DNA from: a virus
Taxonomy: Duplodnaviria; Caudoviricetes
Reading direction: 5' to 3' (one strand)
Virus record (IMG/VR): IMGVR_UViG_2920580016_000002
Location: 1 to 64,000 of that record
Length of the DNA stretch: 64,000 bases
Part shown: piece by piece, positions 5,340 through 31,299 of the stretch
Layout of the letters: each line of letters begins with the position of its first letter
How positions within the stretch are numbered: position 1 is the stretch's first letter
Notes under the pieces: model-generated
Databases searched by the model: none
What the model was told of the DNA's origin: nothing
What the model saw: the letters and a program-made list of their open reading frames with translations, nothing else
Translations under genes and position numbers: made by a program

Positions 5340-5519
5340 ATGATCACTCTCGAATACAACCCGTTCGCGAAGCAATTCGACGTCAAGCGGGATGGCGAAT
5401 ACATCGGTTTGATAGAGGAGAACCACGAGACTTACCGGGCGCGTAAGATCGGCTCAAGTTTCGCGAACACAACACAGAGCATGTGTGACGCAATCGACTT
5501 CATCACTGAGGGGAAGTAG
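5340..5519 (+). CDS. small hypothetical protein (59 aa, MITLEYNPFAKQFDVKRDGEYIG...), absent from the ORF track
   Basis: AGAGGT RBS, ATG 5340 to TAG 5519; apparent first gene of the rightward block. Confidence 0.7.
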   Translation: MITLEYNPFAKQFDVKRDGEYIGLIEENHETYRARKIGSSFANTTQSMCDAIDFITEGK

Positions 5520-5527
5520 GTAGAGGC

Positions 5528-5671
5528 ATGGCAGACAACATCGCTCGGCAAGCGCTTATCAATCGGGCGCGGAAGAACAACCACTACTTGCGGCGCGGGC
5601 TCATCTCATGGGCGGATTGGGCCGAAGAGGTGCGCCATATCCAGGCGTACGCATGGCACGTGGTCGGCTAG
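5528..5671 (+). CDS. small hypothetical protein (47 aa, MADNIARQALINRARKNN...), absent from the ORF track
   Basis: GAGG RBS, ATG 5528 to TAG 5671, followed directly by hammerhead 1. Confidence 0.65.
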   Translation: MADNIARQALINRARKNNHYLRRGLISWADWAEEVRHIQAYAWHVVG

Positions 5672-5674
5672 TGA

Positions 5675-5746
5675 TGGCGAAACGCTCGTCTCCCTAACCG
5701 GGAACGTGCGTCGTGCGTAGTTGGTCACTGCGCACCTGATGAGCCA
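5675..5746 (+). ncRNA. type II hammerhead ribozyme #1, predicted cleavage after C5712
   Basis: Stem II TGGC/GCCA, GAAA 5679-82, stem III CGC/GCG, GUC triplet 5710-12, stem I GTGCG/CGCAC, CTGATGA 5736-42. Confidence 0.88.
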
Positions 5747-5788
5747 AACCCAGCTCACAGCACCAACACACAGAAAGGCGGTAGACCC

Positions 5789-6022
5789 ATGGCACAGGGA
5801 CACATGGCGAACGTGCGGGCCGACGGGTACATGGCGCTCGTGATCGGAGCCGCGTTTTCGGACGGCTGGCATGTGGAGCAGACGGAAGAGGCTACCTACA
5901 TCTTCACCAGAGGTGACGAGACGGTCACACTGCCGTTCGTGGAGAACATGCGCGACGCGTTCGATGTCCTGCACTTCGCCGAGCGCTACGGGCTCATGAG
6001 CAAGATCACTGGCAAGCGCTGA
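5789..6022 (+). CDS. hypothetical protein
   Basis: CACACAGAAAGGCGG leader before ATG. Confidence 0.75.
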   Translation: MAQGHMANVRADGYMALVIGAAFSDGWHVEQTEEATYIFTRGDETVTLPFVENMRDAFDVLHFAERYGLMSKITGKR

Positions 6023-6139
6023 CCTTACTTCCGTGTTTCCCTATGTGCTAGCGTCTACCAAACCGGGAGGCGCTAGCACACAGCTCACACGCCCTCACCA
6101 GGGCATCTCTGTGCCCACACCCCAGAAAGGCGGCAAATC

Positions 6140-6454
6140 ATGGTCTCGTTCCTTCCGGATGGCGCGTACGACCGCGACCGTACCCAGACTCCCTACACGT
6201 GCCGAATCTGCGGAAAGGATAGCTGGGTATACAACCCAACCAACCCGAGCATGTTCCGGAGCACGCCGACGGCACACAGCTCATGTGAGAACGCGATCGG
6301 CTACACCAACGCTGACATGCGGCGTGCCACGCTGGCGGGCGATGAGCTGGGCGCGTTGCACCACTACGGCCGGTACCTCCGTGCATGCGCTGGTAACCCG
6401 GATCCCGACTCATGGGACCTGCCGTCGCTCCAGCAGTATCCCCACATTCGCTAG
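6140..6454 (+). CDS. hypothetical protein with CxxC motif
   Basis: CAGAAAGGCGG leader; CRIC...C...C. Confidence 0.7.
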   Translation: MVSFLPDGAYDRDRTQTPYTCRICGKDSWVYNPTNPSMFRSTPTAHSSCENAIGYTNADMRRATLAGDELGALHHYGRYLRACAGNPDPDSWDLPSLQQYPHIR

Positions 6455-6523
6455 GCGAAACGTGCGTCTACCTAACCGGGACGCGCGTCATGCCGGGATT
6501 GGTTACCCGGCGTCTGACGAGCC
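6454..6523 (+). ncRNA. type II hammerhead ribozyme #2, predicted cleavage after C6489
   Basis: GGC/GCC stem II, GAAA 6457-60, stem III CGTGCGTC/GACGCGCG, GUC 6487-89, stem I ATGCCGGG/CCCGGCGT, CTGACGA 6514-20. Confidence 0.92.
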
Positions 6524-6572
6524 AGACCGCGCACGGCAGAACCCCAACCATCACACAGAAAGAGGGACACCT

Positions 6573-7718
6573 ATGTCTCGCGAGTCCATGACCTGGCTGA
6601 ACACTCAGACTCTCATCGGCTTCGCCGCGAAGCGTGGGAAGGCGTGGCACTACCGGTCGGAGGAGCAGGGCGCGGAGTCGAACCACTACGACGGCGCTAT
6701 CCCGCTGGAGGACGTCAAGCGGCGGCTGTTCCACTGGGAGCCGCTGGAGATGCCCATTTTCACCATCATCCCCGCACAGATCACGGCGGACGGCGTCCAG
6801 CCTGCCCGCATCGTGCGCTTCAAGGACCGTAAGTCCATCCTTCGCTCTGACGAGATGGAGACGGTCGGTATCGACGTCGCCCACATCAGCGCGCTTGCGG
6901 CTAACCCGCATGTGGAGCTGGAAGACCTGGCGGACAAGGGCGTCCTTGCTGGCTTGGACGGCAACGCGCTGGGTGTGTTCATGGACAGCTACCAGCCGCA
7001 CCCGTACGCGCAATGGCTGCTCATGAACGTTGAGCGCATCCTTGACGGCAACCTCTCCATCGGCTCGGCCGGTCTGCTCAAGGGCGGAGCCCAGGCTTGG
7101 GTGTCCGTCGAAGTTCCCGAGAACATCAAGACGCCGGAAGGTGTGGACTTCCGCCCGAATCTGCTGGCCACCACGAGCTTTGACGGCTCGCTCGCCACCA
7201 CATACAAGAACGTGGTCACGGTGGTTGTCTGTGACAACACGCATGCGGTTGCCATGCGAGAGAAGGGGCAGGCGTTCAAGGTTCGGCACAGTTCCAAGAG
7301 TCTGAACAAGATTCAGGACGCGCGGGCCGCGCTGAACATCGTCTACGACACGGCCGACGCGTTCCAGCAGGAGGTTAAGCGGCTGTGCGAGACAACGGTC
7401 ACTGACAAGCAGTGGGCCGCGTTCATGAATGAGCTGGTGCCCGTTCCGACCGACCCGAAGAAGAAGCAGGGCATCACCATGGCGGAGAACAAGCGCGCCG
7501 AGTACGCCCAGCTCTGGAACTGGGATGAGCGTGTCAGCCCGTGGAAGAACACCGCATGGGGCGTTCTCCAGGCGGTCAACACCTACGACCACCACAAGGG
7601 CATCGTGAAGGGTGCCACGCGGGCCGAGCGCAACATGTCCAAGATGGTCAAGAACCACTTTGAAACCCTGCGTACCGACACGCTGGACACGCTGAACAAG
7701 GTTCTCGCGACGGTGTAG
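6573..7718 (+). CDS. DUF932 / phage-plasmid LGT_TIGR03299-type protein
   Basis: Start ATG 6573 after the leader; AWHY, YQPH, SAG.L.GG.Q.WV, TSFDGS..T, VVCDNT, VRHS and TAWG.LQAVNTY.HH motifs. Confidence 0.85.
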   Translation: MSRESMTWLNTQTLIGFAAKRGKAWHYRSEEQGAESNHYDGAIPLEDVKRRLFHWEPLEMPIFTIIPAQITADGVQPARIVRFKDRKSILRSDEMETVGIDVAHISALAANPHVELEDLADKGVLAGLDGNALGVFMDSYQPHPYAQWLLMNVERILDGNLSIGSAGLLKGGAQAWVSVEVPENIKTPEGVDFRPNLLATTSFDGSLATTYKNVVTVVVCDNTHAVAMREKGQAFKVRHSSKSLNKIQDARAALNIVYDTADAFQQEVKRLCETTVTDKQWAAFMNELVPVPTDPKKKQGITMAENKRAEYAQLWNWDERVSPWKNTAWGVLQAVNTYDHHKGIVKGATRAERNMSKMVKNHFETLRTDTLDTLNKVLATV

Positions 7719-7867
7719 GCCGCTCATGGGAGCGTCTCTCTAACCGGGAGATGCTCCCACCCCTTCCCCGATTTCTAGGCGAGCTAGGGGGACGCACGGG
7801 CCGCGTGTCCGTGCCTCCCTCAGTTCGATGTGACGTCGGACTCCCCACACAGAAAGGCGGTAGATCC

Positions 7868-8158
7868 GTGCTGCTCAACAAGCTCCGCACGTCCGATGCG
7901 GTCGCTAAGTTCCTCCGGCAGGCCGGTTGTCTGGGTGTGCAGATGGACAGTAGGACATGCCCGGTCGCGCAGTACATGCGGCGGTGCTATCCGCAGGCAA
8001 AGAACATCTCTGTCGGATTGCGTTTCTCGCACATCAACCTCCGTTCTGGTCTGCTCGTGATCAGGCACTCAGATGCGGTCAAGCTGTTCGTTGAGAGTTT
8101 CGACAGCGGGTATTACCACGACCTGATTAGCAAGCGTAACGACGCCGACCAGCGTTAG
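7868..8158 (+). CDS. hypothetical protein
   Basis: Leader motif followed by GTG 7868; CPVAQY and FV..FDSG.Y. Confidence 0.7.
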   Translation: MLLNKLRTSDAVAKFLRQAGCLGVQMDSRTCPVAQYMRRCYPQAKNISVGLRFSHINLRSGLLVIRHSDAVKLFVESFDSGYYHDLISKRNDADQR

Positions 8159-8160
8159 CC

Positions 8161-8409
8161 ATGCCTGCATATCCGCTCGGATTCATAGAGGCGCTCTCTG
8201 ATGACTCGCCCGAAATCCGAGAGGATGCGGCGCGCTGCATCATCGAAGAACGCGAGGTAGAGCTAGCGGGCCTTCAAGCACGCCTAGCAGTCGCGAACAC
8301 CGCAACCCGACGCCGGAATCTCCAGACGCGTCGCAAAGCCCTTAGAAACAACATCAGCGCTTGGCAGGCGTACATAGATGACGGCTGCCCGCGCTACGCA
8401 CCTTCATAG
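8161..8409 (+). CDS. hypothetical coiled-coil protein
   Basis: Tightly packed ORF. Confidence 0.65.
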   Translation: MPAYPLGFIEALSDDSPEIREDAARCIIEEREVELAGLQARLAVANTATRRRNLQTRRKALRNNISAWQAYIDDGCPRYAPS

Positions 8410-8411
8410 GA

Positions 8412-8711
8412 GTGAGTGTGTCTGAGATCCACGAGAGCACGCCCGAGCAGCCTGTTTATCTGCGGTTCCTGGTCGGCCGAATGGAGTTGCTGCATCAGGT
8501 CACCATTCCGAGCGACAACGCGGGCCGCGTGGAAATGGCGCTGGTTGTTCTGCGACGGGAGCACGACACCACGCCTTACATCGTGTGCTACGTCAGCGAG
8601 CATTCCGCGAAGTTCGGGGAGTGGTTTGAAGGTTTCTACACCTCCGATCACGTCACCGCATACGTGGAAATGGCGCGACGGGCAAAGCTCTACGGCATCG
8701 AAGTCAAGTAG
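8412..8711 (+). CDS. hypothetical protein
   Basis: AGGAG RBS; its stop overlaps hammerhead 3. Confidence 0.7.
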   Translation: MSVSEIHESTPEQPVYLRFLVGRMELLHQVTIPSDNAGRVEMALVVLRREHDTTPYIVCYVSEHSAKFGEWFEGFYTSDHVTAYVEMARRAKLYGIEVK

Positions 8712-8771
8712 GCGAAACGCGCGCTACGGCGCGTGTCGTGTCGGGAGTCGTTACCCGATGCCTGATGAGCC
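8711..8771 (+). ncRNA. type II hammerhead ribozyme #3, predicted cleavage after C8737
   Basis: GGC/GCC stem II, GAAA 8714-17, stem III CGCGCGC/GCGCGTG closed by a cUACGg tetraloop, GUC 8735-37, stem I GTGTCGGG/CCCGATGC, CTGATGA 8762-68. Confidence 0.93.
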
Positions 8772-8795
8772 AGACCACACAGAAAGGCGGGAGAA

Positions 8796-9314
8796 ATGGC
8801 ACCTCGCATTGACAAGAACCTGGTGATCGTTCTGGACCACACGCGATTTCAGGGGTTCGGTCACATCTACGCCAAGCCGTTCGTAGAGAACAACGGGTTC
8901 GAGCCGACCGGTAAGGGTGATCTCCTAGCCCCCGGACTTGGTAGCCGGTGGGGCTGGGAGCGTAATTACAACTGGCTGCGTGATCTCCGAACGTCAGCGC
9001 AATACACCATTGGGCACGCGGACGGAGGCTTGTACGGCTACGACATCCACTATTCACAGCCGTTCAGTGTCCAGCTCTACCAGGCGGAGGCGATGGTTAA
9101 GGCACTCCGCAAGATCCATCGAGAGATGGACAAGCTGAAGAGCACTCACGGCTACCCCGATTCCTATGGGGAGTACGTCGCGCACTTCGCTATAGCTATC
9201 GGCTGCAACCGCTTCGCCACCTGGCAGAACGGCACGCGTAGCTACATGTGGATGAACACAGCCGAGATGCGTACTTGGGTGGAAGGCGTCTTTCGCGAGG
9301 CGGTGGCGGCCTGA
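8796..9314 (+). CDS. hypothetical protein
   Basis: Leader motif before ATG. Confidence 0.75.
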   Translation: MAPRIDKNLVIVLDHTRFQGFGHIYAKPFVENNGFEPTGKGDLLAPGLGSRWGWERNYNWLRDLRTSAQYTIGHADGGLYGYDIHYSQPFSVQLYQAEAMVKALRKIHREMDKLKSTHGYPDSYGEYVAHFAIAIGCNRFATWQNGTRSYMWMNTAEMRTWVEGVFREAVAA

Positions 9315-9315
9315 C

Positions 9316-9549
9316 ATGGAAGACGTACGCGAGGCTGACAGGCCCATGGTGGGCATTGTGGCCTGGTCCAATCAGGTCTGTGTCTACCGTCTCCCCGATT
9401 ACGCCGATTGTTTCCAGTCGATTGCCGTTCTCTGGGGTGAATACCTCTCGGGAACGGTAGTGCTGGAAGTGACGCCGGACGCATGGGAAGCCGAGCGAGA
9501 CGAGCTGCTTTCCGCGCCGGATATCACGGTAGCGACCTTCGGTTTCTAG
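9316..9549 (+). CDS. hypothetical protein
   Basis: Packed ORF with GAGG RBS. Confidence 0.6.
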   Translation: MEDVREADRPMVGIVAWSNQVCVYRLPDYADCFQSIAVLWGEYLSGTVVLEVTPDAWEAERDELLSAPDITVATFGF

Positions 9550-9683
9550 GCGGTCTAGGGGGATGCGCGGACACGCGCCGCGCGTCCCTCAGTCCGATGT
9601 GACTCCGGACTATTCCCCACTGCTAGAAAACCGTGCGTCTCTCAAACCGGGAGGCGTGCGGCGCAACGCCCAAAGGATGAGCC

Positions 9684-10268
9684 GTGACACCTATTCCCCT
9701 CCCGGTTTCTGACGAGACGCACGAGCGTTTCGTGGCCAACATCATCTACACGTACGGCCACGCGACACAGGACCAGTGGGAGCGCGGTAAGACCTGGTAT
9801 CACCAGGCTAACCAGCTCGCCGCGATGATCTCGGGTGGCGACGTAGTGACCGGTGCAGGCGTCATCGCTGCCCTGTCGAGTAACAAGCGGTGGAGCGATA
9901 ACACGAAGCTGGCTGCTCGCGCGTTCCTGCGTGGCGAACCGTCGGGGCACGTCGGTGATGCCCTGACGAAAGCGGCTCGGATCATGGCGGGCGAGCGGCC
10001 TACTGATGTTCTCCCCATGTCCAGCAAAACGGGCCAGTTCTTTCTGTGCATCGCCAATCCGGCCGATCCTCAGGCGGTCTGTGTGGACCGGCACGCGCAC
10101 GACGTAGCCGTTGGCGTGAGGTACGGCAGCGAGAATCGCGGCCTTAGCTCTAAGGCGCGCTACCAGGCCATCGCGGACGCGTACAGAGATGCCGCGCGGC
10201 GGCTTGATGTCCTTCCCCTGACGGTTCAAGCCGTCTGCTGGGTTGTCCAGATCGAAAGCAGCAACTAA
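9684..10268 (+). CDS. HhH/endonuclease III-like phage protein (DUF7178-like putative base-excision enzyme)
   Basis: G..WY..A, AGVIAALS, KT..F, VCVDRHA and Y..IADAY..AA...LP..VQA.CWV motifs. Confidence 0.6.
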   Translation: MTPIPLPVSDETHERFVANIIYTYGHATQDQWERGKTWYHQANQLAAMISGGDVVTGAGVIAALSSNKRWSDNTKLAARAFLRGEPSGHVGDALTKAARIMAGERPTDVLPMSSKTGQFFLCIANPADPQAVCVDRHAHDVAVGVRYGSENRGLSSKARYQAIADAYRDAARRLDVLPLTVQAVCWVVQIESSN

Positions 10269-10286
10269 CACAGAAAGGCGGAAGTT

Positions 10287-10856
10287 ATGTCCACAGAGTT
10301 TCTGACCATGGCTCGCGACGTGGCCCGTGAAATGGGCGGCTGGGATGTGCGGGGCGGTCCCTGGCCGAATCAGTTCTACATCTACGACGGCGACCAAAAG
10401 CTGTGCCTGACGTTCGACGACCTTGACGACACAGGCCGGGTCAACATCAGCACCAGCTACCCGGAACGGTCGGGCGAGGTATACGGCGTGAGGCAGTACA
10501 ACATCGGCGTGTCCTTCAAGCGCGGGGCGGCGGTGATCGCCCGCGAGATCAAGCGGCGGCTTCTGCCTAACTACCTGGCGGAGTTGGAGCGCGTGAAAAA
10601 GGAAATCGCCGAATTCGTAGAGGCGGAGCGCCGACAGGTGGCCAACGCTAAGGCGATAGCTGGCGCTCTCGGCGTGGAGTGTGCGGCGGTTGTTCACCCC
10701 TCCGGCATCTACGTGCGTACCGGATACAGCGGCGACTACCAGGACGTTGGTCGCCCCGAATTCCGCGTGTTGGGAAGCGGAAATGTTGAAATCAAGATCC
10801 ATGCGCGGGCCGACGTCGCGCTGAAGCTCGCCGAATTCATGGCGACAATCAAGTAA
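10287..10856 (+). CDS. hypothetical protein
   Basis: Leader motif before ATG. Confidence 0.75.
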   Translation: MSTEFLTMARDVAREMGGWDVRGGPWPNQFYIYDGDQKLCLTFDDLDDTGRVNISTSYPERSGEVYGVRQYNIGVSFKRGAAVIAREIKRRLLPNYLAELERVKKEIAEFVEAERRQVANAKAIAGALGVECAAVVHPSGIYVRTGYSGDYQDVGRPEFRVLGSGNVEIKIHARADVALKLAEFMATIK

Positions 10857-10946
10857 CAACGGTCGCGAGCGCTTCTGGCATCGCCCGGATTTCCGGGCGG
10901 TGTCAGTGGCACGGCGAACGTGTCAGCCACACACAGAAAGGCGGTA

Positions 10947-11291
10947 ATGATGAAGCTGCTCAGTCTGTTCAAGCGCACGCCGCGCTACATCGTCGAGATC
11001 GCGCACGACGAGCTTTATGCCACATGCCTTAACCCCGACTGCCCGATGGACCTGGAGCAGATCAAGCTCCTAGACAACGGGGATGAGGCGGCCTATCACA
11101 TCGCGGTCTATCAGGTGTGCCCCGATGGCCACGGTAGCGAGTGCCCGCATGCCAATTTGATCGCCGACACCACCTGTATCGCGGACTACGGCCTTCCTAC
11201 GGGGCGATACAGCACCCCGGACGACATCGGCGGATCTGACTATCTACGCGATGTCGCTAGCGGCATCTGGCCTGGAAAGGTGGCGGCGTAA
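10947..11291 (+). CDS. Cys/His-rich hypothetical protein
   Basis: Leader motif before ATG 10947. Confidence 0.7.
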   Translation: MMKLLSLFKRTPRYIVEIAHDELYATCLNPDCPMDLEQIKLLDNGDEAAYHIAVYQVCPDGHGSECPHANLIADTTCIADYGLPTGRYSTPDDIGGSDYLRDVASGIWPGKVAA

Positions 11292-11542
11292 TGAATGAGC
11301 GGTCGCGACTCTGCGTGCCCATCGAGCGGGAGATTTACCGGCTGCTGCTGGAGCGCGTCCCGAACAATGCAGACCGGCTCCCCACGTTCGAGACCATCAA
11401 CGATATGGACGAGCAGGTAGCCCATGCGGCTATGAACTGCATAGAGAACTATCTGGCGGACAACGGAAGCCTGTGGCACTTCACCAGGCGGAGGCGCGTA
11501 CGCGAGTGGGCCGAGAACACCCTTAAGCGATTCGGTCTCTAA
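11291..11542 (+). CDS. hypothetical protein
   Basis: TAATG stop/start overlap. Confidence 0.7.
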   Translation: MNERSRLCVPIEREIYRLLLERVPNNADRLPTFETINDMDEQVAHAAMNCIENYLADNGSLWHFTRRRRVREWAENTLKRFGL

Positions 11543-11558
11543 GAGAAAGGCGGATGTA

Positions 11559-11822
11559 ATGAACGTTGCCCAAATCATCTGGTCTATGTCGCGGAGCCTC
11601 TCCCGATATGAGAATGCCCGCACGATCCTCGGAGAGACGTACGCGAAGCTCAGCCGTACCGATGTGCCCCCGCTAGACAGCGCACGGGAAGCGCTCGCGT
11701 ACGTGACAGACCACATCGGTTATGCACCCGGTCAGTCGCCAGACACCACGCTCAATGACGCGGTGGCTGTGCTGTCCATGTACGTGGCGATTCTCACTTT
11801 GGCCGACAAGTACGAGAGCTAA
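11559..11822 (+). CDS. hypothetical protein
   Basis: AGAAAGGCGG RBS. Confidence 0.7.
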   Translation: MNVAQIIWSMSRSLSRYENARTILGETYAKLSRTDVPPLDSAREALAYVTDHIGYAPGQSPDTTLNDAVAVLSMYVAILTLADKYES

Positions 11823-11838
11823 GGGAAAGGCGGAAGTA

Positions 11839-12141
11839 ATGGCACGCAAGGTAAAGCCGATGTGGACTCTCGTGCAGCACAGCGCTTATGGATGGGACCG
11901 CAAGGAGGGGTTCCGGCACATGGTAGAGACCAGGTCTGTTCTCGATCGTGTCCAGCAGCGGGAGATTGAGCGCCTGGGCGGCCTGCTCTTCGAGAGCTAC
12001 ACCGACGCCGATGAGGCGGAGTACCGGGAGAACTACCCCGAAGGTGCCGATCTCCTCGCCGGGAAGGTACGCGGCACCTTCGCCGAGTACAACCTTGACG
12101 GACTGAAGCTCTACATTCCCGCGAAAGACGACACGGCCTAA
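11839..12141 (+). CDS. hypothetical protein
   Basis: GAAAGGCGG RBS before ATG 11839 (MARKVKP). Confidence 0.7.
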   Translation: MARKVKPMWTLVQHSAYGWDRKEGFRHMVETRSVLDRVQQREIERLGGLLFESYTDADEAEYRENYPEGADLLAGKVRGTFAEYNLDGLKLYIPAKDDTA

Positions 12142-12233
12142 CGGGTCCTCTGGTCACCATGCCTGCCCCGAATTCTGCGGTGGGCATGGGCGGCTGGGGC
12201 GTCCGCTAGGGCGATCACACAGAAAGGCGGGAG

Positions 12234-12491
12234 ATGGGAAAGCACCGCAAGACCAGCATGCCGAATCCGACCAGCAACGTGGCCAACGAGCACGGCGCGA
12301 TGCTGGCGAGGTTCGGAACGACGGCACCCGAGGCCGAAACTCTCCTCCGTTTCGGCTCTTTGGTCCTGTCCAACATCGCTACTGGCTTCGCTCCTGATCG
12401 GGCAACGGCGGCGGCGCTGCGCTCCTTCAGCGATCCGGAAAACGTGGTCGAACTGGGGGCGTCGGTCTGGGAACGCATCGAAACCGAATAA
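12234..12491 (+). CDS. hypothetical protein
   Basis: Leader motif before ATG. Confidence 0.7.
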   Translation: MGKHRKTSMPNPTSNVANEHGAMLARFGTTAPEAETLLRFGSLVLSNIATGFAPDRATAAALRSFSDPENVVELGASVWERIETE

Positions 12492-12511
12492 CACAGAAAG
12501 GCGGTAGAACA

Positions 12512-12892
12512 ATGCGAGACGTTCACCTGGAATTCCGGGACAGCGTCGGCTGGTGCGGGACGGCACCAGAGGATGAGAACAAGATCACGGATGACCGGCA
12601 GCTCGCCACTTGCGACGACTGCCGTACGGCATGGGAGAACTTCGACGCCTCCCACGATGCCGAGCTGCCGGAGGACTACGACGGGTCCGAGCCGGAGCTA
12701 CTGGCCAAGATGCGCAGGATCCAGGCCGGTGTGGCGGGCCGCATCGGAAACACCCTGATCGACATGCAGAGCGCGAACCTCTGGGTGCAGGCATACGAGA
12801 AGGGCAACGACAACACCAAGGCCAAGCTACTGGAGATGGATCCGGGAACGGCGTGCCTTGCGCTCTGGCGCATTGTTGGGCGGTCGAAGTGA
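12512..12892 (+). CDS. hypothetical protein with C...CxxC motif
   Basis: Leader motif before ATG. Confidence 0.7.
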   Translation: MRDVHLEFRDSVGWCGTAPEDENKITDDRQLATCDDCRTAWENFDASHDAELPEDYDGSEPELLAKMRRIQAGVAGRIGNTLIDMQSANLWVQAYEKGNDNTKAKLLEMDPGTACLALWRIVGRSK

Positions 12893-13065
12893 CCGCCCTT
12901 GAGATTGCTGCTCGGGCCGCGTTCTACGCCCGGCAGCGAGAGGCACAGGCGGTCGTGACGGACCTGAGTCGGCGGGAGCGCGCGGCGCGGCGCTCGGGTG
13001 ACCGGGCGCACGTACGAGCCATCCGGCGCGAGGTGCGGCGCATCCGCTCCGAGGCATCGGCCTAA
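12889..13065 (+). CDS. small Arg-rich hypothetical protein (MTALEIAARAAFYARQRE...)
   Basis: GTGA overlap with the upstream stop; fills the gap to the next leader. Confidence 0.55.
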   Translation: MTALEIAARAAFYARQREAQAVVTDLSRRERAARRSGDRAHVRAIRREVRRIRSEASA

Positions 13066-13091
13066 ACACCACACACAGAAAGGCGGTAGTA

Positions 13092-14060
13092 ATGGCAGAG
13101 ATCGAACAGCGGGAGATCCTCCTCCCCGAAGGCAATGTGTTCGTGTCCATCGAAGAGGCTCGGGGTGAGCGCGGGGAGCTGCCCACGTTGCGCGTGGCGA
13201 CGTCAACCCACACAGGCACCGACGCCGTAGAGACCACGGTCAAGATCAAGGCGCACGAGTACACCTTCCTCATGCGGGTCATGCACGGGACGAAGAAAAC
13301 GTGGTTGTACTCCCGCCAGGAGTGGCAGGAGGAGCACGGATGGCACACGGCAGACAACGAGCACATTCGAACGGCGGGCGGTAACGAGCTGGGCCGGTAC
13401 TCTCCTACCGGCGAGCGGCTGGCCAACGTCGCCGTCATCGCAGCACAGGAGTACGAGAAGCTCGTACCTGACTGGCGCGTGCGCAGCAAGATCGCGGCCA
13501 TGCACAAGGCCATGAGAGCCGATTGGCACAGCTACTACCTGAACACGCGCGAGGCGGTAGGGCTGCGGCTGCACTGCGCGGAGTTGGAAGAGGGTATTCG
13601 CGCGCTGCTGCCTGACCTCACTGAGGACCTGCCTCTGCCCGATTTCGCTCTCGACCTCAACCAGCCCCACTTCCGCGAGATCTACGGCGAACACGAGTGG
13701 TGGCACACAGAGGGCGACGTCTACGGAAACCCCGGCATGTGGCACGTGCCTGGCTGCCCGGTGACGTGGCGGGCCGGTGCGGTCCGCAAGGAAACCGCGC
13801 CCATCATGCGACTCCTGGTGAAGGGCGGCGCGCTGTGCGGCTGCGTGCCTGACAAGACCACGGCTGTGGAGATGCCCGACGGCAGCCTGCGATGGCGGCC
13901 AAGCGGCCTGGCCTGGCACCGCTGGGCGGTGGTTGAGAAGGTCGCCGAGGAGTCACGGCTGGTGAGCTGGCACCTGACAGAGGACGACGTCATAGCCGCT
14001 GTCGGGCGAAGCCAGAACCCCACGGCGTGGGCCGCTCGCGCATACCTCACGCAGCCCTAG
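13092..14060 (+). CDS. hypothetical protein (322 aa; C-terminal H..GC / CGC possible metal site)
   Basis: Leader motif before ATG. Confidence 0.75.
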   Translation: MAEIEQREILLPEGNVFVSIEEARGERGELPTLRVATSTHTGTDAVETTVKIKAHEYTFLMRVMHGTKKTWLYSRQEWQEEHGWHTADNEHIRTAGGNELGRYSPTGERLANVAVIAAQEYEKLVPDWRVRSKIAAMHKAMRADWHSYYLNTREAVGLRLHCAELEEGIRALLPDLTEDLPLPDFALDLNQPHFREIYGEHEWWHTEGDVYGNPGMWHVPGCPVTWRAGAVRKETAPIMRLLVKGGALCGCVPDKTTAVEMPDGSLRWRPSGLAWHRWAVVEKVAEESRLVSWHLTEDDVIAAVGRSQNPTAWAARAYLTQP

Positions 14061-14167
14061 CGGGTCCTCTGATCACCGCGCGTCTACCTAACCGGGACAG
14101 GCGCGCGGCCGGTCGGGGCGTCCGCTCGGGCGATCACCAACACACAGAGAAAGGCGGTAGATCCGTC

Positions 14168-14437
14168 ATGCCCAAAGTCCTGATCTTCCCTTACCAGCGT
14201 CCCCAGAGCCGAGTTCCCGACGTGCGCGGCCTGGGCTGGGTGGCCCGTCGCGCCCTCATGATGCGGGCGTCATTCAAGCTGGAACGCCTGGAGAAGGGCA
14301 CGAGCATCCTCATCGGCCAGACCTTCGACGGCGACGAGCGGACCAAGCTCAAGGCGCAGCTCCAGCAGATCAAGGCGGATCTCCGCGCTATCCGGAAGTA
14401 CGCCAGCGATGGTTTCCCGGCTATCCGGGAGGTCTGA
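14168..14437 (+). CDS. hypothetical protein
   Basis: Leader motif followed by ATG 14168. Confidence 0.65.
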   Translation: MPKVLIFPYQRPQSRVPDVRGLGWVARRALMMRASFKLERLEKGTSILIGQTFDGDERTKLKAQLQQIKADLRAIRKYASDGFPAIREV

Positions 14438-15211
14438 GTGCTCGCCCGATTTTTCTGCGGTGCCCCTGAGCTGAGCTGGGCAGAAGAGCACGGCGACATA
14501 GGGCCGTTGTTCATCAGCTTCAACCGCATTTCCCGGTTAAAGTTTCGGCCGATCATCATCACCACGGATTTCGCTATCGACTCAGGCGGCTTCACACAGC
14601 TTTCCAAGGGCGGTTGGCCTGATGGCTGCGAAGAGCCCTACATCGCCGCGATTCGCAGGCTCAAGCGGCACATCTGGAAGGGTGCGCAGCACCTTCAGTG
14701 GATTGCCCCGCAAGACTGGATGTGCGAGGAAGAGCAGCTAGCCAACACCGGCCTTACGGTGCTCGAACACCAGCAGCGCACCGTACAGAACTTCGTTCGC
14801 CTCACCGAACTTGCCCCCGATCTTCCATGGGCCATGGCGGTGCAGGGCACGAAACCGTCTGAGTATCTCCGCATTCTCGACATGTACGCGGATGCGGGAG
14901 TGGATCCCCACGCGCAGAAGATCGTCGGTGTCGGTTCGATCTGTCGTATTCAGCACACAGACCTGGCCGTAGAGATCATCGAGTCCTTGCACAATGCCGG
15001 GCTGCGGAAGCTGCACGGATTCGGGCTGAAGACTGAGGGGCTCGCAAAGGTCGGGCACCTTCTTACCTCCGCCGATTCGATGGCCTGGAGTGAGCACGCC
15101 CGGAAACAAAAGATCCGTCTCGACGGGTGTCCACACAAGCGGTGCGTCTCTTGCCCGAAGTACGCCAAGCAATGGCGGAACAGGCTCATCCAGCGCGGCC
15201 TAGCCGCTTAA
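14438..15211 (+). CDS. DpdA/TGT-like (queuine tRNA-ribosyltransferase-like) base-exchange protein
   Basis: FAIDSGGF, APQDWMCE, VQG, VGVGSICR, LHGFGLK and SADSMAWS motifs plus C-terminal C.H..C..C. Confidence 0.8.
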   Translation: MLARFFCGAPELSWAEEHGDIGPLFISFNRISRLKFRPIIITTDFAIDSGGFTQLSKGGWPDGCEEPYIAAIRRLKRHIWKGAQHLQWIAPQDWMCEEEQLANTGLTVLEHQQRTVQNFVRLTELAPDLPWAMAVQGTKPSEYLRILDMYADAGVDPHAQKIVGVGSICRIQHTDLAVEIIESLHNAGLRKLHGFGLKTEGLAKVGHLLTSADSMAWSEHARKQKIRLDGCPHKRCVSCPKYAKQWRNRLIQRGLAA

Positions 15212-15229
15212 CACAGAAAGGGGAAAGAA

Positions 15230-15475
15230 ATGACGGATCTCAAAGCCTGGCATATGAACGTGCCGGAGCTGGGCGCGTGGAACGAGGTCGCGACCGGTGC
15301 ATGGCAGCTACACAACTTCGGCAAGCAGCTCGACGACATCGCCTTTCAGGTGCTCAAGCAGGCGCGGCACTACCCGAAAGCCGCTGAGCAGGTGATCACT
15401 GGGCTGAACGAGCAGATTGCCCACCTGGTCAAGCTTCGTGACGACCTGACCGCGTTCAACCAGAACCAGCGCTAG
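15230..15475 (+). CDS. hypothetical protein
   Basis: ACACAGAAAGGGG leader. Confidence 0.7.
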   Translation: MTDLKAWHMNVPELGAWNEVATGAWQLHNFGKQLDDIAFQVLKQARHYPKAAEQVITGLNEQIAHLVKLRDDLTAFNQNQR

Positions 15476-15507
15476 CCCCTACCCAATCACACAGAAAGAG
15501 GGAAGTA

Positions 15508-16026
15508 ATGCCCTTCGACAACCCCTCCCTTCTCGTCACCTTCGTTGGTGAGGGTGAGCACCGGCACGAAGAGCTGGAGTTCGACCTGCTTGACGTCGAG
15601 CTGGCGGAGCTGCAAGACGAGATCCGGAAGGCCATTGGGCCGTGCTACACGATCGAGACGGACGACGACGACTGGGAAGGCGTTGCCGTCGCAGAGGCGG
15701 CGTCGGCGCACGACCTGTGGCAGCTCGCCCGGACGGCTCACAAGCTGGACTATTCGGAGGCGTTCTTGGCCTGGGTGGCGCACGTCCGGCCCTACAGCAT
15801 CCGCAGCCTAAACCTGGAGGAGGCGGTTGAGGATTTCGGCAAGGAGTTCGTCGGAGCTTTCGAGAACTTCGAGGCGTACGGGCGTGACTCGCTGGCGGAT
15901 GAGATCTTGCGCTTCCCGGCGCTGGATACGTTCTTCGACTTCGAGGGGTACGGCGAATGGCTGGCTTCCGACTACACATCGGTTGACCTGAACGCGGGCG
16001 GCTTCGCGCTGTTCAGGAAGGTCTGA
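15508..16026 (+). CDS. ardA: antirestriction protein, ArdA family (DNA mimic)
   Basis: Very acidic; EAFLAWV, F.G.FE..E.Y and FFDFEGYG..L motifs with a FALFR C-terminus. Confidence 0.8.
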   Translation: MPFDNPSLLVTFVGEGEHRHEELEFDLLDVELAELQDEIRKAIGPCYTIETDDDDWEGVAVAEAASAHDLWQLARTAHKLDYSEAFLAWVAHVRPYSIRSLNLEEAVEDFGKEFVGAFENFEAYGRDSLADEILRFPALDTFFDFEGYGEWLASDYTSVDLNAGGFALFRKV

Positions 16027-16030
16027 GGCC

Positions 16031-16402
16031 ATGGCCAACAAGGTCATTCGCAAGTCTGACGGTGCGCGCGGCCAGTGGGTCTTGCGGGCTCAGCCGCAGA
16101 ATCACTCCATCTACGAGTGGCACGACACTCAGCCGATGTTCGCCCAAGAGATCCTTCCTCATAGCGATGTGGCCGACCCGCACGACCGCGAGGGCGGGCG
16201 CTGGGGGCAGGTGGCGGAGCTGGCGCAGGCTGCTTCTGGCGCGGCCGGAGTGCTGGGCGAGATCGCCGCACACTGCATGAACGGCGGTTGGTACAACGAG
16301 ACGGAGCGGGACGCCAAGCGGCAGCTTGAGCGGCTGGAGCACATCACGGCTCTGATGCGCGAGCGCGTAGAGGCTGCGTGCTGTACCGGGCGCAATCGCT
16401 GA
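16031..16402 (+). CDS. hypothetical protein
   Basis: Packed ORF with GAGG RBS. Confidence 0.65.
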   Translation: MANKVIRKSDGARGQWVLRAQPQNHSIYEWHDTQPMFAQEILPHSDVADPHDREGGRWGQVAELAQAASGAAGVLGEIAAHCMNGGWYNETERDAKRQLERLEHITALMRERVEAACCTGRNR

Positions 16403-16411
16403 AGGTCTGAC

Positions 16412-16454
16412 CGGGGTTGACTCCTAGAATCGAGTAGAGCTGGAGTCAACCCCG
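16412..16454. promoter_or_regulatory. perfect 13-bp inverted repeat CGGGGTTGACTCC-N17-GGAGTCAACCCCG upstream of the RHH gene
   Basis: Read directly from the sequence; intergenic, 13 nt before the ATG. Confidence 0.55.
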
Positions 16455-16467
16455 ATCGGAGTACACC

Positions 16468-16803
16468 ATGGCGTATTCAACGAGCATGTACCTGCCCGTC
16501 ACAGTCATCAAAGCAATGAACGAGAAAGCGGAGAAGAGCGGCCTTACCCTATCCGCTGTTGCGGCGGCTCTCGTAACGAGAGCACGGAGGGGCGAACTTC
16601 CCGCCGAGTTTCTCATTCCCCCGAAATTCGAGCGGGGCGAGACCAAGAAAACCCAGAACGTCTACCTTTCAGACGATGTCTGGACGGAGGGCGAAGGCGC
16701 TGCAATAATTCCTGAAAAGGACCGCCCGCGATTCGTTACGGCGCTGATGTACGCCTACTCGCGGTGCCTGGTAGACGTGCAGCTAACCGTCACCATTACC
16801 TAA
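16468..16803 (+). CDS. tandem ribbon-helix-helix-like DNA-binding protein
   Basis: Two beta-strand + helix-helix units: STSMYLP..VIKAMNEKAEKSGLTLSAV and TQNVYLSDDVW...PRFVTAL. Confidence 0.55.
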   Translation: MAYSTSMYLPVTVIKAMNEKAEKSGLTLSAVAAALVTRARRGELPAEFLIPPKFERGETKKTQNVYLSDDVWTEGEGAAIIPEKDRPRFVTALMYAYSRCLVDVQLTVTIT

Positions 16804-16829
16804 CACACACAGAAAGAGTAGCGGAGCAT

Positions 16830-17627: not shown

Positions 17628-17707
17628 CCGGATTCGTGTCGGGGCGGCGTCCTACGATGGGGCGTCGCCTCTCTTCTTCCCCGAAATGCAGCAGATCAGG
17701 AGCAGAT

Positions 17708-19531: not shown

Positions 19532-19609
19532 GCACTCGCCTTTGTCGCCCGAATTCGGGGCGGGCGGCATTGGGGTCTGCTCAGGACACACAGAGACGGG
19601 AGAAAGAAC

Positions 19610-19999: not shown

Positions 20000-20513
20000 G
20001 CGCAAAATCATCGAGCTGTTCGATGACGGTACACAGATTTATGACTGGGACTGGTGGAAGCGGAATTACATCGCAAATCAGAGCCGAGTTTTCCGGGGCG
20101 ACGCAACGGAGTACGAGCGGGAGTTCTGGGGTAAGGCCGTCTACTACGTTCGCGAGGTCGGTTCCCCGGTACTCTCTCCGGCGCTGAAGCTTCGCTGGAA
20201 GGCGATTCTGAAGACACCGTCTGAGCCGTGGAACAACGATTACGCCTGGTTCGAGGACGAGAACGGGAACAACTACGCATATAACGGCGAGGTTCTGAGC
20301 TTCTCCTACAACCCCGAATTCGAGTGCGAGGTGCCTCCGGTCGCGGTCCTGGACGGTCCCCTGACGCGCGAGATCCTGCGGGCGTGGTCGAAATGGTTCT
20401 TCGGTCCGGCCTACCACGTGACCAGAGCCACGCAGTGCGATCACGGATACAGGCTGAGCGACTCGTGCCCTGGCTGCGATGCCGACGAGGAGAGGATGAG
20501 GAAGAGCGCATGA
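19992..20513 (+). CDS. hypothetical protein, C-terminal C.H...C..C
   Basis: Overlapping packing. Confidence 0.65.
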   Translation: MRERKIIELFDDGTQIYDWDWWKRNYIANQSRVFRGDATEYEREFWGKAVYYVREVGSPVLSPALKLRWKAILKTPSEPWNNDYAWFEDENGNNYAYNGEVLSFSYNPEFECEVPPVAVLDGPLTREILRAWSKWFFGPAYHVTRATQCDHGYRLSDSCPGCDADEERMRKSA

Positions 20514-20923
20514 GCGAGAACCTCAAGCAGAAGATCGTGTACGCCTACGTGGAGCATGGGGACTTCGAGCCTCACGGGCTGCTGGTGCGTGCGTCGCTGG
20601 GCGGCGTGACGACCATGACGGTGGCCGCGTACCTGGACGAGCTGACCGACGGCGACATCTACGTTCGGGACGGCAAGCCCATGGGGAACGCCCAGTACTG
20701 GTACAAGGGCATCGGCGATCTGGACCTCATCCCGGTTACTTTCGAGGCGGAGAACGCACTCCACGAGGGCGGCGACACGGGGGCGAAGATCACCATGAAG
20801 ACCGCCGACGGCATGGTGGTTCAGCACTGGTACGCGTGGGGCATGGCCGTCATGACGCGGGGGCCGCTCGGTCAGGCGATCCCGGACCCTAGGCCGATCG
20901 TAGTTGTGAAGGAGAGCGAATGA
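20510..20923 (+). CDS. hypothetical protein
   Basis: ATGA overlap at 20510 (MSENLKQK). Confidence 0.65.
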   Translation: MSENLKQKIVYAYVEHGDFEPHGLLVRASLGGVTTMTVAAYLDELTDGDIYVRDGKPMGNAQYWYKGIGDLDLIPVTFEAENALHEGGDTGAKITMKTADGMVVQHWYAWGMAVMTRGPLGQAIPDPRPIVVVKESE

Positions 20924-21240
20924 ATCCGCGCGGGTACGAGAGCACCGACGCCGTCAGGGACGCCCGGCACATCCGGGATTATCTGGGAGCGGAGTGGGAC
21001 GTCACGGTAGACGCCTTGACCCTCCTCCCGAAAATTCCGGAAGGGGAGACGGCCGAGCACCTCTACGCCCTGGCGTTCTGCTACGAGGCGGGCGAGAACG
21101 TCTACCAGGTCAGGTACGGCCCCTTGGAGCGGCCAAGAGACCACATGCTGCTCTACAGCAAGTCGGGCCAGGCGGATGTGATGGCTCACTATCTCGAACG
21201 CATGGAGAGCTACGTTAACAGCCCTGAAGGCGGCATCTGA
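20920..21240 (+). CDS. hypothetical protein
   Basis: ATGA overlap, AGGAG RBS. Confidence 0.65.
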   Translation: MNPRGYESTDAVRDARHIRDYLGAEWDVTVDALTLLPKIPEGETAEHLYALAFCYEAGENVYQVRYGPLERPRDHMLLYSKSGQADVMAHYLERMESYVNSPEGGI

Positions 21241-21299
21241 GCAAGTGATGGACGGCGGGTAAGATCCTTGCGAGAGTCGGACGAACGAGGATCTACCGC

Positions 21300-21554
21300 A
21301 TGCCTACTCGCAGGGTCGTACATTCCACCACGACGGGCGACCGGCCAGCCGACGAGGGCCGGGACGTCGTACCTACCTGGGACGAGTACAGGCGTCCGTA
21401 CTCGCTCGACTGGGTGAAGTCGCGAGGCAAACTGGACAGCCACATCAAGATCTCTCCCGAACTTCGGCAACGTGCCCAGGAGGAGTGTGCGAGCAGGGGG
21501 TTACGGCTGATCGACTATGTGATCATCGACGAGCACACGGTCTACATCCCTTAA
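21300..21554 (+). CDS. hypothetical protein
   Basis: Last ORF before the terminator; GAGG RBS. Confidence 0.6.
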   Translation: MPTRRVVHSTTTGDRPADEGRDVVPTWDEYRRPYSLDWVKSRGKLDSHIKISPELRQRAQEECASRGLRLIDYVIIDEHTVYIP

Positions 21555-21557: not shown

Positions 21558-21589
21558 AAAAGCCCTCGGCTGACGCCGGGGGCTTTTTT
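21558..21589. terminator. bidirectional intrinsic terminator between the convergent blocks
   Basis: AAAAGCCCTCGGC-TGAC-GCCGGGGGCTTTTTT: GC stem with an A-run 5' and a T-run 3'. Confidence 0.85.
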
Positions 21590-27683: not shown

Positions 27684-27703
27684 AGTGGTTCGGGTATTCC
27701 TTC

Positions 27704-29684: not shown

Positions 29685-30019
29685 TACATCCCCTGCCCGT
29701 ACTGGCGCTTCGCCCAGAAGTCGCGGTTGCCGACGGCCGACCGGACGATCCGGGTGTTACGCAGGTTTGCCGACTCGGCCGGGTCGTTGCCGACGACCAT
29801 CTGAGCACGCGGAGCGTAGGTCGCGCCGTGACGCTCGTGGGTCTGACGCCGGACGCCCTCACTCAGCGCGGCCTCGATCATGCCGCCCTTGGCATTACCG
29901 GACTTCCGAACGGGCTTGGTGTACGAGGACGGAGCGCCGGAGACGTTGCGGACGTTGGCCGCCTCCGTACCCATGGTCGGGAACTTGGTCGTGGTCTTGT
30001 CACCCACGATTTCCTCCAA
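29684..30019 (-). CDS. hypothetical protein (possible virion protein)
   Basis: Packed ORF; start uncertain. Confidence 0.55.
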   Translation of the reverse strand: MEEIVGDKTTTKFPTMGTEAANVRNVSGAPSSYTKPVRKSGNAKGGMIEAALSEGVRRQTHERHGATYAPRAQMVVGNDPAESANLRNTRIVRSAVGNRDFWAKRQYGQGM

Positions 30020-30024
30020 AACGG

Positions 30025-30207
30025 TTATTGGAACCAGAGCAGCTTTTGATACGTGGACTCTGATACGCCGTTTCTAGAGGGAAGCACTTGGCCCGGCAGG
30101 AGCCTGTTTCTCTCCGATTCCCCGAATCCCAGAGTGCTGGGCTGGATCTGCTCCAGCACCGAAGTAGGCCGGTAGCCACCCTGATAAGGGCGCGTGCCAG
30201 ACGACAT
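30025..30207 (-). CDS. small hypothetical protein (MSSGTRPYQGGY...)
   Basis: Fills the gap between SpoVS and the next ORF. Confidence 0.45.
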   Translation of the reverse strand: MSSGTRPYQGGYRPTSVLEQIQPSTLGFGESERNRLLPGQVLPSRNGVSESTYQKLLWFQ

Positions 30208-30279
30208 GGCCGAAGATGCGAAGGCTTCGGTTCTGTTCTCCACTGCGCTCCTTAGCAACGGGTCTCTATCAGCCTACGG

Positions 30280-30573
30280 TCAATCGACGAGAATCTTGTA
30301 AACCAGCGCACTGACCTTGCCGTCCGCCATTTCTACCGTCGTGAAGCCGATCCTCGCGGCCAGCGTGATGCCGCGCGAGCCGACGTACGACTGAGCGATG
30401 GCGATACCCTTCGAGGTCTGATTCACCGCACCCGCCCCAATGGCTCGAAGGCTGACCTGCTTGCCGTTGTAGATGGCGTGGGCGATGGCGCTCGCAAGCT
30501 TCGCAGCGTCGCTGCTGGCAGACACGCGGAGCAGCACCGACTTGTCGTCATTCTCTTCAATCTCGGAAACCAT
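30280..30573 (-). CDS. spoVS: stage V sporulation protein S-like (Alba fold)
   Basis: LLRVSASS....LASAIAH......V.LRAIGAGAVNQ..K.IAIA..Y, essentially the SpoVS consensus. Confidence 0.88.
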   Translation of the reverse strand: MVSEIEENDDKSVLLRVSASSDAAKLASAIAHAIYNGKQVSLRAIGAGAVNQTSKGIAIAQSYVGSRGITLAARIGFTTVEMADGKVSALVYKILVD

Positions 30574-30651
30574 GTGTTTCTCCTTTTCGGGTTTCCCAAT
30601 CTGAGCCGTCTGTTTCAGATTAGGGAAAAGGAGCGCAAGGTTTATAACGAG

Positions 30652-30684
30652 AAAAGCCCCCGCCCGCTCAAGCGGGTCGGGGGC
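30652..30684 (-). terminator. intrinsic terminator ending the ruvC-containing transcript
   Basis: Minus strand GCCCCCGACCCGC-TTGA-GCGGGCGGGGGC-TTTT. Confidence 0.75.
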
Positions 30685-30694
30685 CTCTCCCAGG

Positions 30695-30717
30695 GATCAC
30701 CAACACACACAGAAAGG
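30695..30717 (-). ncRNA. candidate 3'-UTR sRNA seed antisense to the early-gene leader
   Basis: Minus RNA CCUUUCUGUGUGUGUUGGUGAUC is complementary at 22/23 nt to the leader at 14132-14154 and to the shared CACACAGAAAGG core. Confidence 0.45.
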
Positions 30718-30750
30718 AAAGTGCATGACTCCAGTCCGATCTGTGTCCTA

Positions 30751-31299
30751 TTATGCCACACGTTCTGTGTGTAGCACTACCTCCTTGATTGCCCGAATTT
30801 CGTGGAGGCGGGCGTCAGAGCCGTATCCCTCGGTGAGATACTTAGCCATTCTGGCGAGAGTGTAGGAGTCGGCCTCGTTGTCGTTCTTGCACTCGATTCC
30901 CCACCTTTCCTTCACGCCGTCGATCACCTCCTGTTTGCTGGCGTTCCCCTTTCCGGAAGCAAAGAGTTTGACCTTGGTCGGAGCGATGATCGTGGGGTAG
31001 CAGGCTGGCTCGGGAAGGTGCCAGCGCAGTACCCGCTTTACCGCGTAGGCGAGAGATCCGGCCTCTTCCCGCCGGTTCTGGGAGTCGCGCGAGAATCCCT
31101 CCATCGCCACGTGAACCGGATACTCCGGCAGCAGACAGATCTGCTCCCCCAACCACCGTTCAACGTGCATGAGCCGGTCCACGCCCTTGCCGTACTTGGT
31201 CGCGGTGAATTTCACCACGGAGATATCGGCGTAGCCGTCGTACAGTCGCGTCAGGCCGAAGCCACCAAAGGACTGGTCGATCCCCAAAAAGAGGCTCAC
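30751..31299 (-). CDS. ruvC: RuvC-like Holliday junction resolvase
   Basis: FLGIDQS, hAMEG, PTKVKLFASGKGNASK and DNEADS motifs. Confidence 0.85.
   Translation of the reverse strand: MSLFLGIDQSFGGFGLTRLYDGYADISVVKFTATKYGKGVDRLMHVERWLGEQICLLPEYPVHVAMEGFSRDSQNRREEAGSLAYAVKRVLRWHLPEPACYPTIIAPTKVKLFASGKGNASKQEVIDGVKERWGIECKNDNEADSYTLARMAKYLTEGYGSDARLHEIRAIKEVVLHTERVA

Follow-up and report, generated by a model that had tools for sequence, protein, structure and literature searches.

Introduction

Clusters of hammerhead ribozymes that flank genes have been described in prophages, including next to ardA, and these ribozymes cleave in vitro and in vivo (PMC3088659). Start-associated sequences (SAS/ESAS) are known from the Cluster K mycobacteriophages (Pope et al. 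2011, PMC3203893) and from Cluster EF Microbacterium phages (PMC7302621). Here we analyze a 64,000-nucleotide stretch of phage DNA (IMG/VR record IMGVR_UViG_2920580016_000002, positions 1 to 64,000; hereafter the window), in which hammerheads and a conserved leader before start codons occur together in one rightward block of genes. We consider it likely that this is a self-cut hammerhead operon in a prophage, equipped with a conserved ribosome-binding leader, and that an additional, orphan copy of the leader beside a RuvC-like gene is a stray duplicate of an early spacer.

A preliminary description of this DNA had gone further, proposing that the ribozyme-cut early transcript is later silenced through its shared leader by one trans-acting antisense RNA. 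The sequence observations behind that proposal hold up, and its interpretation finds partial support. Throughout, "early" and "middle" are names inferred from gene content alone. Conservation was assessed against G061, a 108,967-bp contig (IMG/VR UViG_2935054407_000001; Streptosporangium sp. NPDC050855 according to the protein source); it is the single relative in the collections searched, so that all statements about conservation are one comparison.

Results

Three type II hammerheads with intact cores in the rightward block

The three type II hammerheads of the window all lie on the plus strand (Table 1). They are intact, as had been proposed: the GAAA, the GUC cleavage triplet, and the CUGAnGA element of the core are present in all three copies, and both stem I and stem III are closed, stem II being open. 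The gathering score of the Rfam family Hammerhead_II (RF02276) is 37 bits; hammerheads 2 and 3 reach this cut-off and hammerhead 1 misses it. With our own model, hammerhead 1 scores 89 bits, its core and stems being intact. The predicted C17 positions agree with the cut positions named earlier, and cleavage of the rightward RNA would most likely occur at 5712, 6489, and 8737. The placement of the hammerheads is regular; each begins no more than 4 nt from the upstream stop codon or overlaps it, as hammerhead 2 does, and each sits 58-83 nt 5′ of the next start codon. At hammerhead 3, the leader described below begins 5 nt past stem II.

The homologous block of G061 contains five hammerheads, three of them above the Rfam cut-off, and the same CUGAnGA, GAAA, and GUC core is found in 5/5 copies. 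When the eight copies (3 + 5) are aligned, 94% of cells pair compared to at most 52% for slid-partner controls, and 7 of 17 pairs are altered on both sides, a number reached by none of 500 shuffles; because the copies were aligned to fit the structure, these figures are biased in its favor. Pairing between loop I and the 3′ tail, 3-4 bp long, can be drawn by eye in every copy, and the partners appear by eye to co-vary (UUGG/CCAA, GGUU/GACC, GAUC/GAUC). Because G061 keeps five hammerheads with compensatory stem changes as well as 11 start-associated leaders, we conclude from this comparison that the ribozymes are genuine and, like the leader, under selection. The same five copies and their compensatory changes lend support to the idea that hammerheads process a long early transcript.

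Between 3500 and 32000, no other ribozyme class or known small RNA was detected with Rfam at E values up to 5. A candidate fourth hammerhead at 9625-9725 was rejected; the weak model match comes from a hairpin only, and stem II and the core are missing. We found no type II hammerheads in four actinophages with DUF932 or RuvC homologues, and none in 109 other genomes of the genus, for which only part of the candidates were scored. A full-text literature search returned no paper linking hammerheads with actinobacteriophages.

A conserved leader precedes the start codons of rightward genes

The sequence CACACAGAAAGG, allowing at most one mismatch, occurs 14 times in the window, always on the plus strand, compared to 0.21 occurrences expected. 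All copies except one (13/14) lie 5-13 nt before the starts of plus-strand genes, from 5789 to 16830, and 12 of these 13 starts are ATG. About three weaker copies raise the total from the 13 at starts to about 16, so the earlier count of about 17 genes sharing the leader was slightly generous. The exact 12-mer is present in seven copies in the 12.4-Mb genome, all of them in the window. In its fuller form, CACAC-AGAAAGG-(CGG), the leader precedes uncoupled genes throughout the first 12 kb; genes without it are translationally coupled to the preceding gene or lie beyond about 17 kb.

The 3′ end of the host 16S rRNA, present in the genome, is GGATCACCTCCTTTCT; of its final 10 bases, 9 pair with AGAAAGGCGG. 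Only CACAC falls outside the Shine-Dalgarno pairing, and this CA-rich extension is poor in structure. At eight orthologous sites in G061, the leader is 91/96 identical, compared to about 58% identity in the 60 nt upstream, which supports the earlier claim of a common translation leader. By this comparison, the leader is an unusually conserved ribosome-binding site under selection.

Table 1 Features of the window and its rightward and leftward genes (window coordinates).
Feature	Position	Strand	Details
Type II hammerhead 1	5675-5749	+	Predicted C17 5712; Rfam 27.9 bits, E 0.077; stem III with 17-nt motif
Type II hammerhead 2	6453-6531	+	Predicted C17 6489; Rfam 37.1 bits; stem III with 17-nt motif
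Type II hammerhead 3	8710-8779	+	Predicted C17 8737; Rfam 42.8 bits
Leader copy	5767-5778	+	10 nt before ATG 5789
Leader copy, 1 mismatch	6552-6563	+	Before DUF932 gene, ATG 6573
Leader copy	7846-7857	+	Before GTG 7868
Leader copy	8776-8787	+	Before ATG 8796
Leader copy, 1 mismatch	10267-10278	+	Before ATG 10287
Leader copy	10930-10941	+	Before ATG 10947
Leader copy	12216-12227	+	Before ATG 12234
Leader copy, 1 mismatch	12490-12501	+	Before ATG 12512
Leader copy	13072-13083	+	Before ATG 13092
Leader copy, 1 mismatch	14143-14154	+	Before ATG 14168
Leader copy, 1 mismatch	15210-15221	+	Before ATG 15230
Leader copy, 1 mismatch	15488-15499	+	Before ArdA gene, ATG 15508
Leader copy, 1 mismatch	16806-16817	+	Before ATG 16830
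Spacer hairpin, 17-nt motif in apical part	6044-6080	+	No hammerhead core
Spacer hairpin with 17-nt motif	7727-7759	+	
Spacer hairpin with 17-nt motif	9631-9661	+	Weak hammerhead-model match due to the hairpin only
Spacer hairpin with 17-nt motif	14076-14108	+	In module C
Orphan: 3′ part of module C plus leader	30660-30717	+	12-mer at 30706-30717; read on the minus strand, the proposed anti-leader
Terminator hairpin with T-run	30644-30683	-	After RuvC-like gene; conserved in G061
RuvC-like resolvase gene	30751-31299	-	PHROG 159, E 4.7e-21; 78% identical homologue in G061
SpoVS-family gene	30280-30573	-	Downstream of RuvC-like gene; Pfam SpoVS, E 9e-19
Rightward block, ~36 small genes	5340-21554	+	GC3 frame analysis, Pfam and PHROGs matches
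DUF932 gene	6573-7718	+	Pfam/PHROGs
DUF7178 gene	9684-10268	+	Pfam/PHROGs
DpdA gene	14438-15211	+	Pfam/PHROGs
ArdA gene	15508-16026	+	Pfam/PHROGs
Strong terminator-like hairpin closing the rightward block	21558-21587	+	Terminator scan

Spacers are assembled from repeated, structured modules

The spacers of the rightward block are assembled from repeated modules, and several of them fold far better than shuffled sequences, the plus strand better than the minus strand, as the preliminary description had noted for its strand-specific hairpins. Folding z-scores against shuffles are -6.6 on the plus strand and -0.9 on the minus strand for the spacer at 7719-7867, -3.3 and +0.4 for 9550-9683, and -4.3 and -2.0 for 10857-10946. 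One structured module is repeated at 7772-7848 and 9543-9620 and occurs in G061 too. Another, which we call module C, lies at 12142-12219 and 14061-14137 and is also found in G061; conserved outer arms surround a variable inner hairpin. Neither module matches any Rfam family at E values up to 5. A spacer without a leader, at 16403-16467, holds a hairpin with a perfect stem of 13 bp, with a z-score of about -6 on both strands.

A 17-nt motif follows the direction of transcription

Some of these hairpins share, in their apical part, an asymmetric 17-nt motif, CGTCT-N-Y-C-W-M-ACCGGGA, with 13 copies in the window compared to 0.23 in shuffles. Its orientation follows local transcription in 13/13 copies: those on the plus strand (5687, 6052, 6465, 7733, 9636, and 14081) lie only in the rightward block, and those on the minus strand (2366, 28670, 33587, 35558, 49868, 52902, and 63922) only in leftward blocks. 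The copies are found at gene junctions, with one, at 35558, within a coding region. All six copies of the rightward block are in hairpins, two of which are the stem III elements of hammerheads 1 and 2. The homologous places in G061 carry a different variant, CGTCTTTCACACCGG[GCT]A; since all of the G061 copies have this other variant, the motif has changed in concert.

The motif could be a stoperator-like site, a promoter-like site, or a protein-binding site in RNA. It is conceivable, if improbable, that a phage factor binding it in stem III gates ribozyme cleavage. An alternative to a self-cut operon is that the conserved spacer sequence acts as DNA, the motif and perhaps the leader being sites for a regulator or a phage promoter and the hairpins being secondary. 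The excess of motif copies over shuffles, their orientation with transcription on both strands, and the one intragenic copy all fit such sites; the concerted change in G061 is what is expected when a trans factor co-evolves with its site, the L5-type stoperators obey the same rule of asymmetry and orientation (PMC9283540), and the phage is temperate. However, the hairpin arms that hold the six rightward-block copies differ and yet pair, which points to RNA structure, and the leader positions coincide exactly with ribosome-binding sites. Moreover, no copy of the motif is present in the divergent control region (3790-5340), the place where an operator is expected. No immunity repressor was recognized among neighboring open reading frames (ORFs), in a search that was not exhaustive, and no T7-type (single-subunit) RNA polymerase was found, although the control for that search was silent, which makes it uninformative. 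We regard the reading of these sequences as DNA sites as unlikely.

An orphan leader copy lies beside the RuvC terminator

The one leader copy in the window that does not precede a start is the orphan 12-mer at 30706-30717. It falls within 67 nt that separate the leftward terminator from the stop codon (30751) of the leftward RuvC-like gene, just where the preliminary description had placed the leader complement. Because this plus-strand copy lies within a leftward 3′ untranslated region (UTR), the leftward transcript would carry the complement of the leader. The earlier proposal was that the RuvC 3′ UTR gives rise to a leftward small RNA that silences the early genes through their leader, an early-to-middle switch that needs no protein.

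There is some evidence in favor of this proposal. Immediately upstream of a real terminator, the anti-leader is complementary to the leader at all 12 nt, and the orphan matches the early leader copy at 14132-14154 in 22/23 nt. Predicted duplex energies of the anti-leader with 13 leaders range from -27 to -48 kcal/mol when internal structure is ignored. The leader 12-mer is absent elsewhere in the genome, Cluster K phages have single reversed copies of their start-associated sequences (PMC3203893), and the window encodes, at 1623-2114, a protein that has a phage ProQ C-terminal-like domain.

Several findings argue against it. The homology extends past the leader: about 58 nt of the orphan (30660-30717) align with both module C copies (12142 and 14061) as well as with two from G061, and the duplicated pieces include the 3′ hairpin arm, GGGCGATCACCAACA, and the leader. 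The 22/23 match arises because the orphan duplicates a whole piece of spacer, which suffices alone to account for it. In G061, the terminator and the SpoVS 5′ region are almost invariant, and all of the proposed targets (leaders and hammerheads) are kept, yet the segment from the terminator to the RuvC stop is unrelated in sequence and contains no leader. Lack of conservation had been named beforehand as one of the outcomes that would count against a shut-off RNA, and it is what we see at this syntenic spacer. Structure prediction for the 3′ UTR pairs 8 of the 12 anti-leader bases with an internal ACACAGA and gives them an unpaired probability of about 0; in the model, the seed becomes free only after a cut immediately 5′ of it. 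We found no leftward promoter-like site within the RuvC 3′ end from which a separate small RNA could start. Judged by sequence, then, the antisense part of the proposal fails the one comparative test available. We consider a dedicated leftward silencing RNA very unlikely, and we read the orphan as most likely a side product of recombination among GC-rich spacers rather than a regulator in its own right.

A second orphan leader with one mismatch lies outside the window near an integrase gene (L136:16130-16141, minus strand, at about -13859 in window coordinates). It is common to G061 (8985-8996, minus strand), follows a conserved hairpin, and is not associated with a start; its direction is that of the leftward ORFs flanking it, and it is no more conserved than its surroundings. 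The only G061 leader copy away from a start is at a different location from the RuvC spacer and in the sense of its flanking genes. The broader idea that the orphans, that of the RuvC 3′ UTR and perhaps the integrase copy, act as antisense RNAs that titrate or mask the leader and so silence the early set seems to us scarcely probable.

The region around the orphan holds two other items. A plus-strand gene following the orphan (a 46-aa ORF at 30725-30865) was considered and rejected, as it is antisense to RuvC and absent in G061. The SpoVS 5′ region (30574-30640), which includes a 7-bp hairpin (AATCTGA...TCAGATT), hardly differs between the two phages, whose identity elsewhere is 70-80%, and probably represents a promoter or leader under strong constraint.

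Gene content of the rightward block

The genes of the rightward block are presumed to be early or anti-defense genes. Leftward genes for replication, recombination, and structural proteins flank the block on both sides, including those for RNR, PolA, DnaB, primase, RecA, the RuvC-like protein, SpoVS, and baseplate J. A terminator scan inside the block found one weak plus-strand terminator-like site (17641-17671); few internal terminators together with the strong one at the end of the block fit long transcripts. DpdA is a 7-deazaguanine DNA-modification transglycosylase (E 5e-66), separated from the downstream ArdA by one small gene; no genes for deazapurine synthesis were seen among the ORFs scanned.

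Just 5′ of the first rightward gene is a near-perfect palindrome at 5238-5270 (TAGAGATTGG...CCAATCTCT), a candidate operator in the early promoter region. Two minus-strand ORFs adjoining the ribozyme operon possibly encode RNA-handling proteins: the ORF at 1623-2114 matches the phage ProQ C-terminal-like domain with 36 bits, above the cut-off, and the ORF at 1-645 matches, below the threshold, the HAD domain found in "Swiss Army Knife" RNA repair proteins. No RtcB was found in G061.

The window is part of an integrated prophage

The window corresponds to G000:C1:654950-718949 within a 12.4-Mb genome of 72 contigs. From -18.5 kb to +89 kb in window coordinates, the G+C content is about 0.63, compared to 0.70-0.74 in the flanking chromosome. 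This low-G+C stretch of about 107 kb is syntenic with G061 at a nucleotide identity of 66-91%, mostly 70-82%, and G061 encodes tyrosine integrases. The step in G+C, the synteny, and the integrases of G061 identify the object as a temperate prophage, about 107 kb long with 63% G+C, integrated in a host of the Streptosporangium type.

Searches for further relatives covered several collections. Near-DNA searches with 5300-17000 and 29800-31500 as queries gave no match in the phage collection, and all protein-level matches for these two regions in that collection are below 45% identity. Among 60 related genomes, a DNA search matched DUF932 genes alone; for RuvC, 110 genomes of the genus yielded distant matches only, and two metagenome scans gave zero matches. 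The hammerhead-to-leader pattern was found in 37 single matches in genome contigs from unrelated taxa, which we read as chance. In the protein database, there is one RuvC homologue at 78% identity and one at 53%. In the 53% relative (JGI contigs), RuvC and SpoVS stand in the same order and a terminator is present; within the 20 kb read, it shows neither an anti-leader nor a hammerhead, and it is too distant to be informative.

Discussion

How would a self-cut operon with a shared leader work? Transcription of the rightward block (5340-21554) probably yields a single long RNA or a few of them, which the three hammerheads would cut after selected genes at their predicted C17 positions. Every upstream piece would finish with the stem III hairpin and a 2′,3′-cyclic phosphate, and each downstream piece would start with a 5′-OH and the stem I hairpin. 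With stem III at one end and stem I at the other, the pieces would be capped by structure at both ends, and such ends should slow exonucleases and 5′-end-dependent decay. The CA-rich leader would keep the ribosome-binding site open amid GC-rich hairpins, allowing strong de novo initiation. Finally, a partial copy of an early spacer module would have landed beside the RuvC terminator.

Some observations weigh against this account. Hammerhead 1 scores under the Rfam cut-off, and its stem III contains a U-U mismatch. The 12-mer of the orphan has no mismatch, and agreement with an early leader in 22/23 nt is high for a neutral relic. The second orphan near the integrase gene is shared by both phages, so that orphan copies may have some role, and single reversed start-associated copies are also kept by Cluster K phages (PMC3203893). 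Conservation rests on one relative, G061.

That the hammerheads are instead selfish or relic elements without a regulatory role, either inactive or cleaving to no consequence, is very hard to credit: their number and positions do differ between the phages (3 versus 5), the copies are alike across positions as mobile modules are, and the genus genomes and actinophages searched yielded none, yet 8/8 copies have an intact core with compensatory changes in all three stems, their position after a stop codon and before a leader is constant, and similar clusters self-cleave in vitro and in vivo (PMC3088659).

The claim that nothing like the combined architecture has been described in an actinophage is too strong for the ribozymes and for the leader, since both are of described kinds; it is the combination of the two in an actinomycete prophage that is new as an instance. 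The self-cut operon adds such a prophage to the known phage operons punctuated by hammerheads, and it brings ribozymes and a start-associated leader together in one operon that is conserved in a second phage. This makes it a compact system for studying the purpose of cutting early phage transcripts and the function of start-associated sequences. Antisense shut-off would be the striking part if true, and it lacks comparative support; the 17-nt motif, oriented with transcription and changing in concert, may be the more productive lead.

Comparison with known systems

The proposed anti-leader is like 3′-UTR-derived small RNAs in that an anti-Shine-Dalgarno sequence is followed by the mRNA's own terminator, and many targets would be reached by one seed match. 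Seed complementarity beside an intrinsic terminator is thus present, but the seed is predicted to be paired and is not conserved in G061; the anti-leader also differs in sharing CCUUUCU with the 3′ end of 16S rRNA. Collective control of early genes through a shared ribosome-binding region recalls RegA and RegB of phage T4; in contrast, no RegA- or RegB-like protein was identified here. As in the RNase III processing of T7 early mRNA, a polycistronic early RNA would be cut post-transcriptionally at structures in its spacers, but here the cutting is predicted to be done by the RNA itself.

The likeness to L5-type stoperators (PMC9283540) concerns the 17-nt motif only. Both are asymmetric and multi-copy, lie at gene junctions in an orientation tied to transcription, and have phage-specific variants. 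The motif is longer, however (17 nt compared to 13), a cognate repressor was not found, the presumed early promoter lacks a copy, and the copies of the early block sit in RNA hairpins.

For the ribozymes, the clusters of Perreault et al. 2011 are close counterparts. There, too, several hammerheads lie close together in a prophage, flanking single genes or short blocks; the type II topology and the neighborhood of the anti-restriction gene ardA are the same, as is the proposed role of cutting a long phage transcript into gene-length mRNAs, and a putative pseudoknot between loop I and the 3′ tail can be drawn here. The examples tested in that study were from Clostridium, Azorhizobium, and Agrobacterium, whereas the host here is an actinomycete. 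Unlike those clusters, stem III of two copies here carries a genome-wide 17-nt motif, and each ribozyme is followed by a conserved leader.

That leader resembles SAS/ESAS in most respects. Both are asymmetric motifs of 12-13 nt with a Shine-Dalgarno core, placed a few nt before mostly ATG starts, in one orientation and at non-structural genes only, and virtually absent from the host genome. Both are kept between related phages even before unrelated genes, often follow structured or repeated sequence, and include single orphan copies without a linked start. The sequences themselves differ (CACACAGAAAGG here compared to GGGATAGGAGCCC or GGGAAAGGACCCC), and the additional conserved part 5′ of the Shine-Dalgarno core is CA-rich here, not a GGG...CCC frame. 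Judged by form and placement, the leader is the same kind of element as SAS, not the same family by descent, and in this prophage it is combined with ribozymes.

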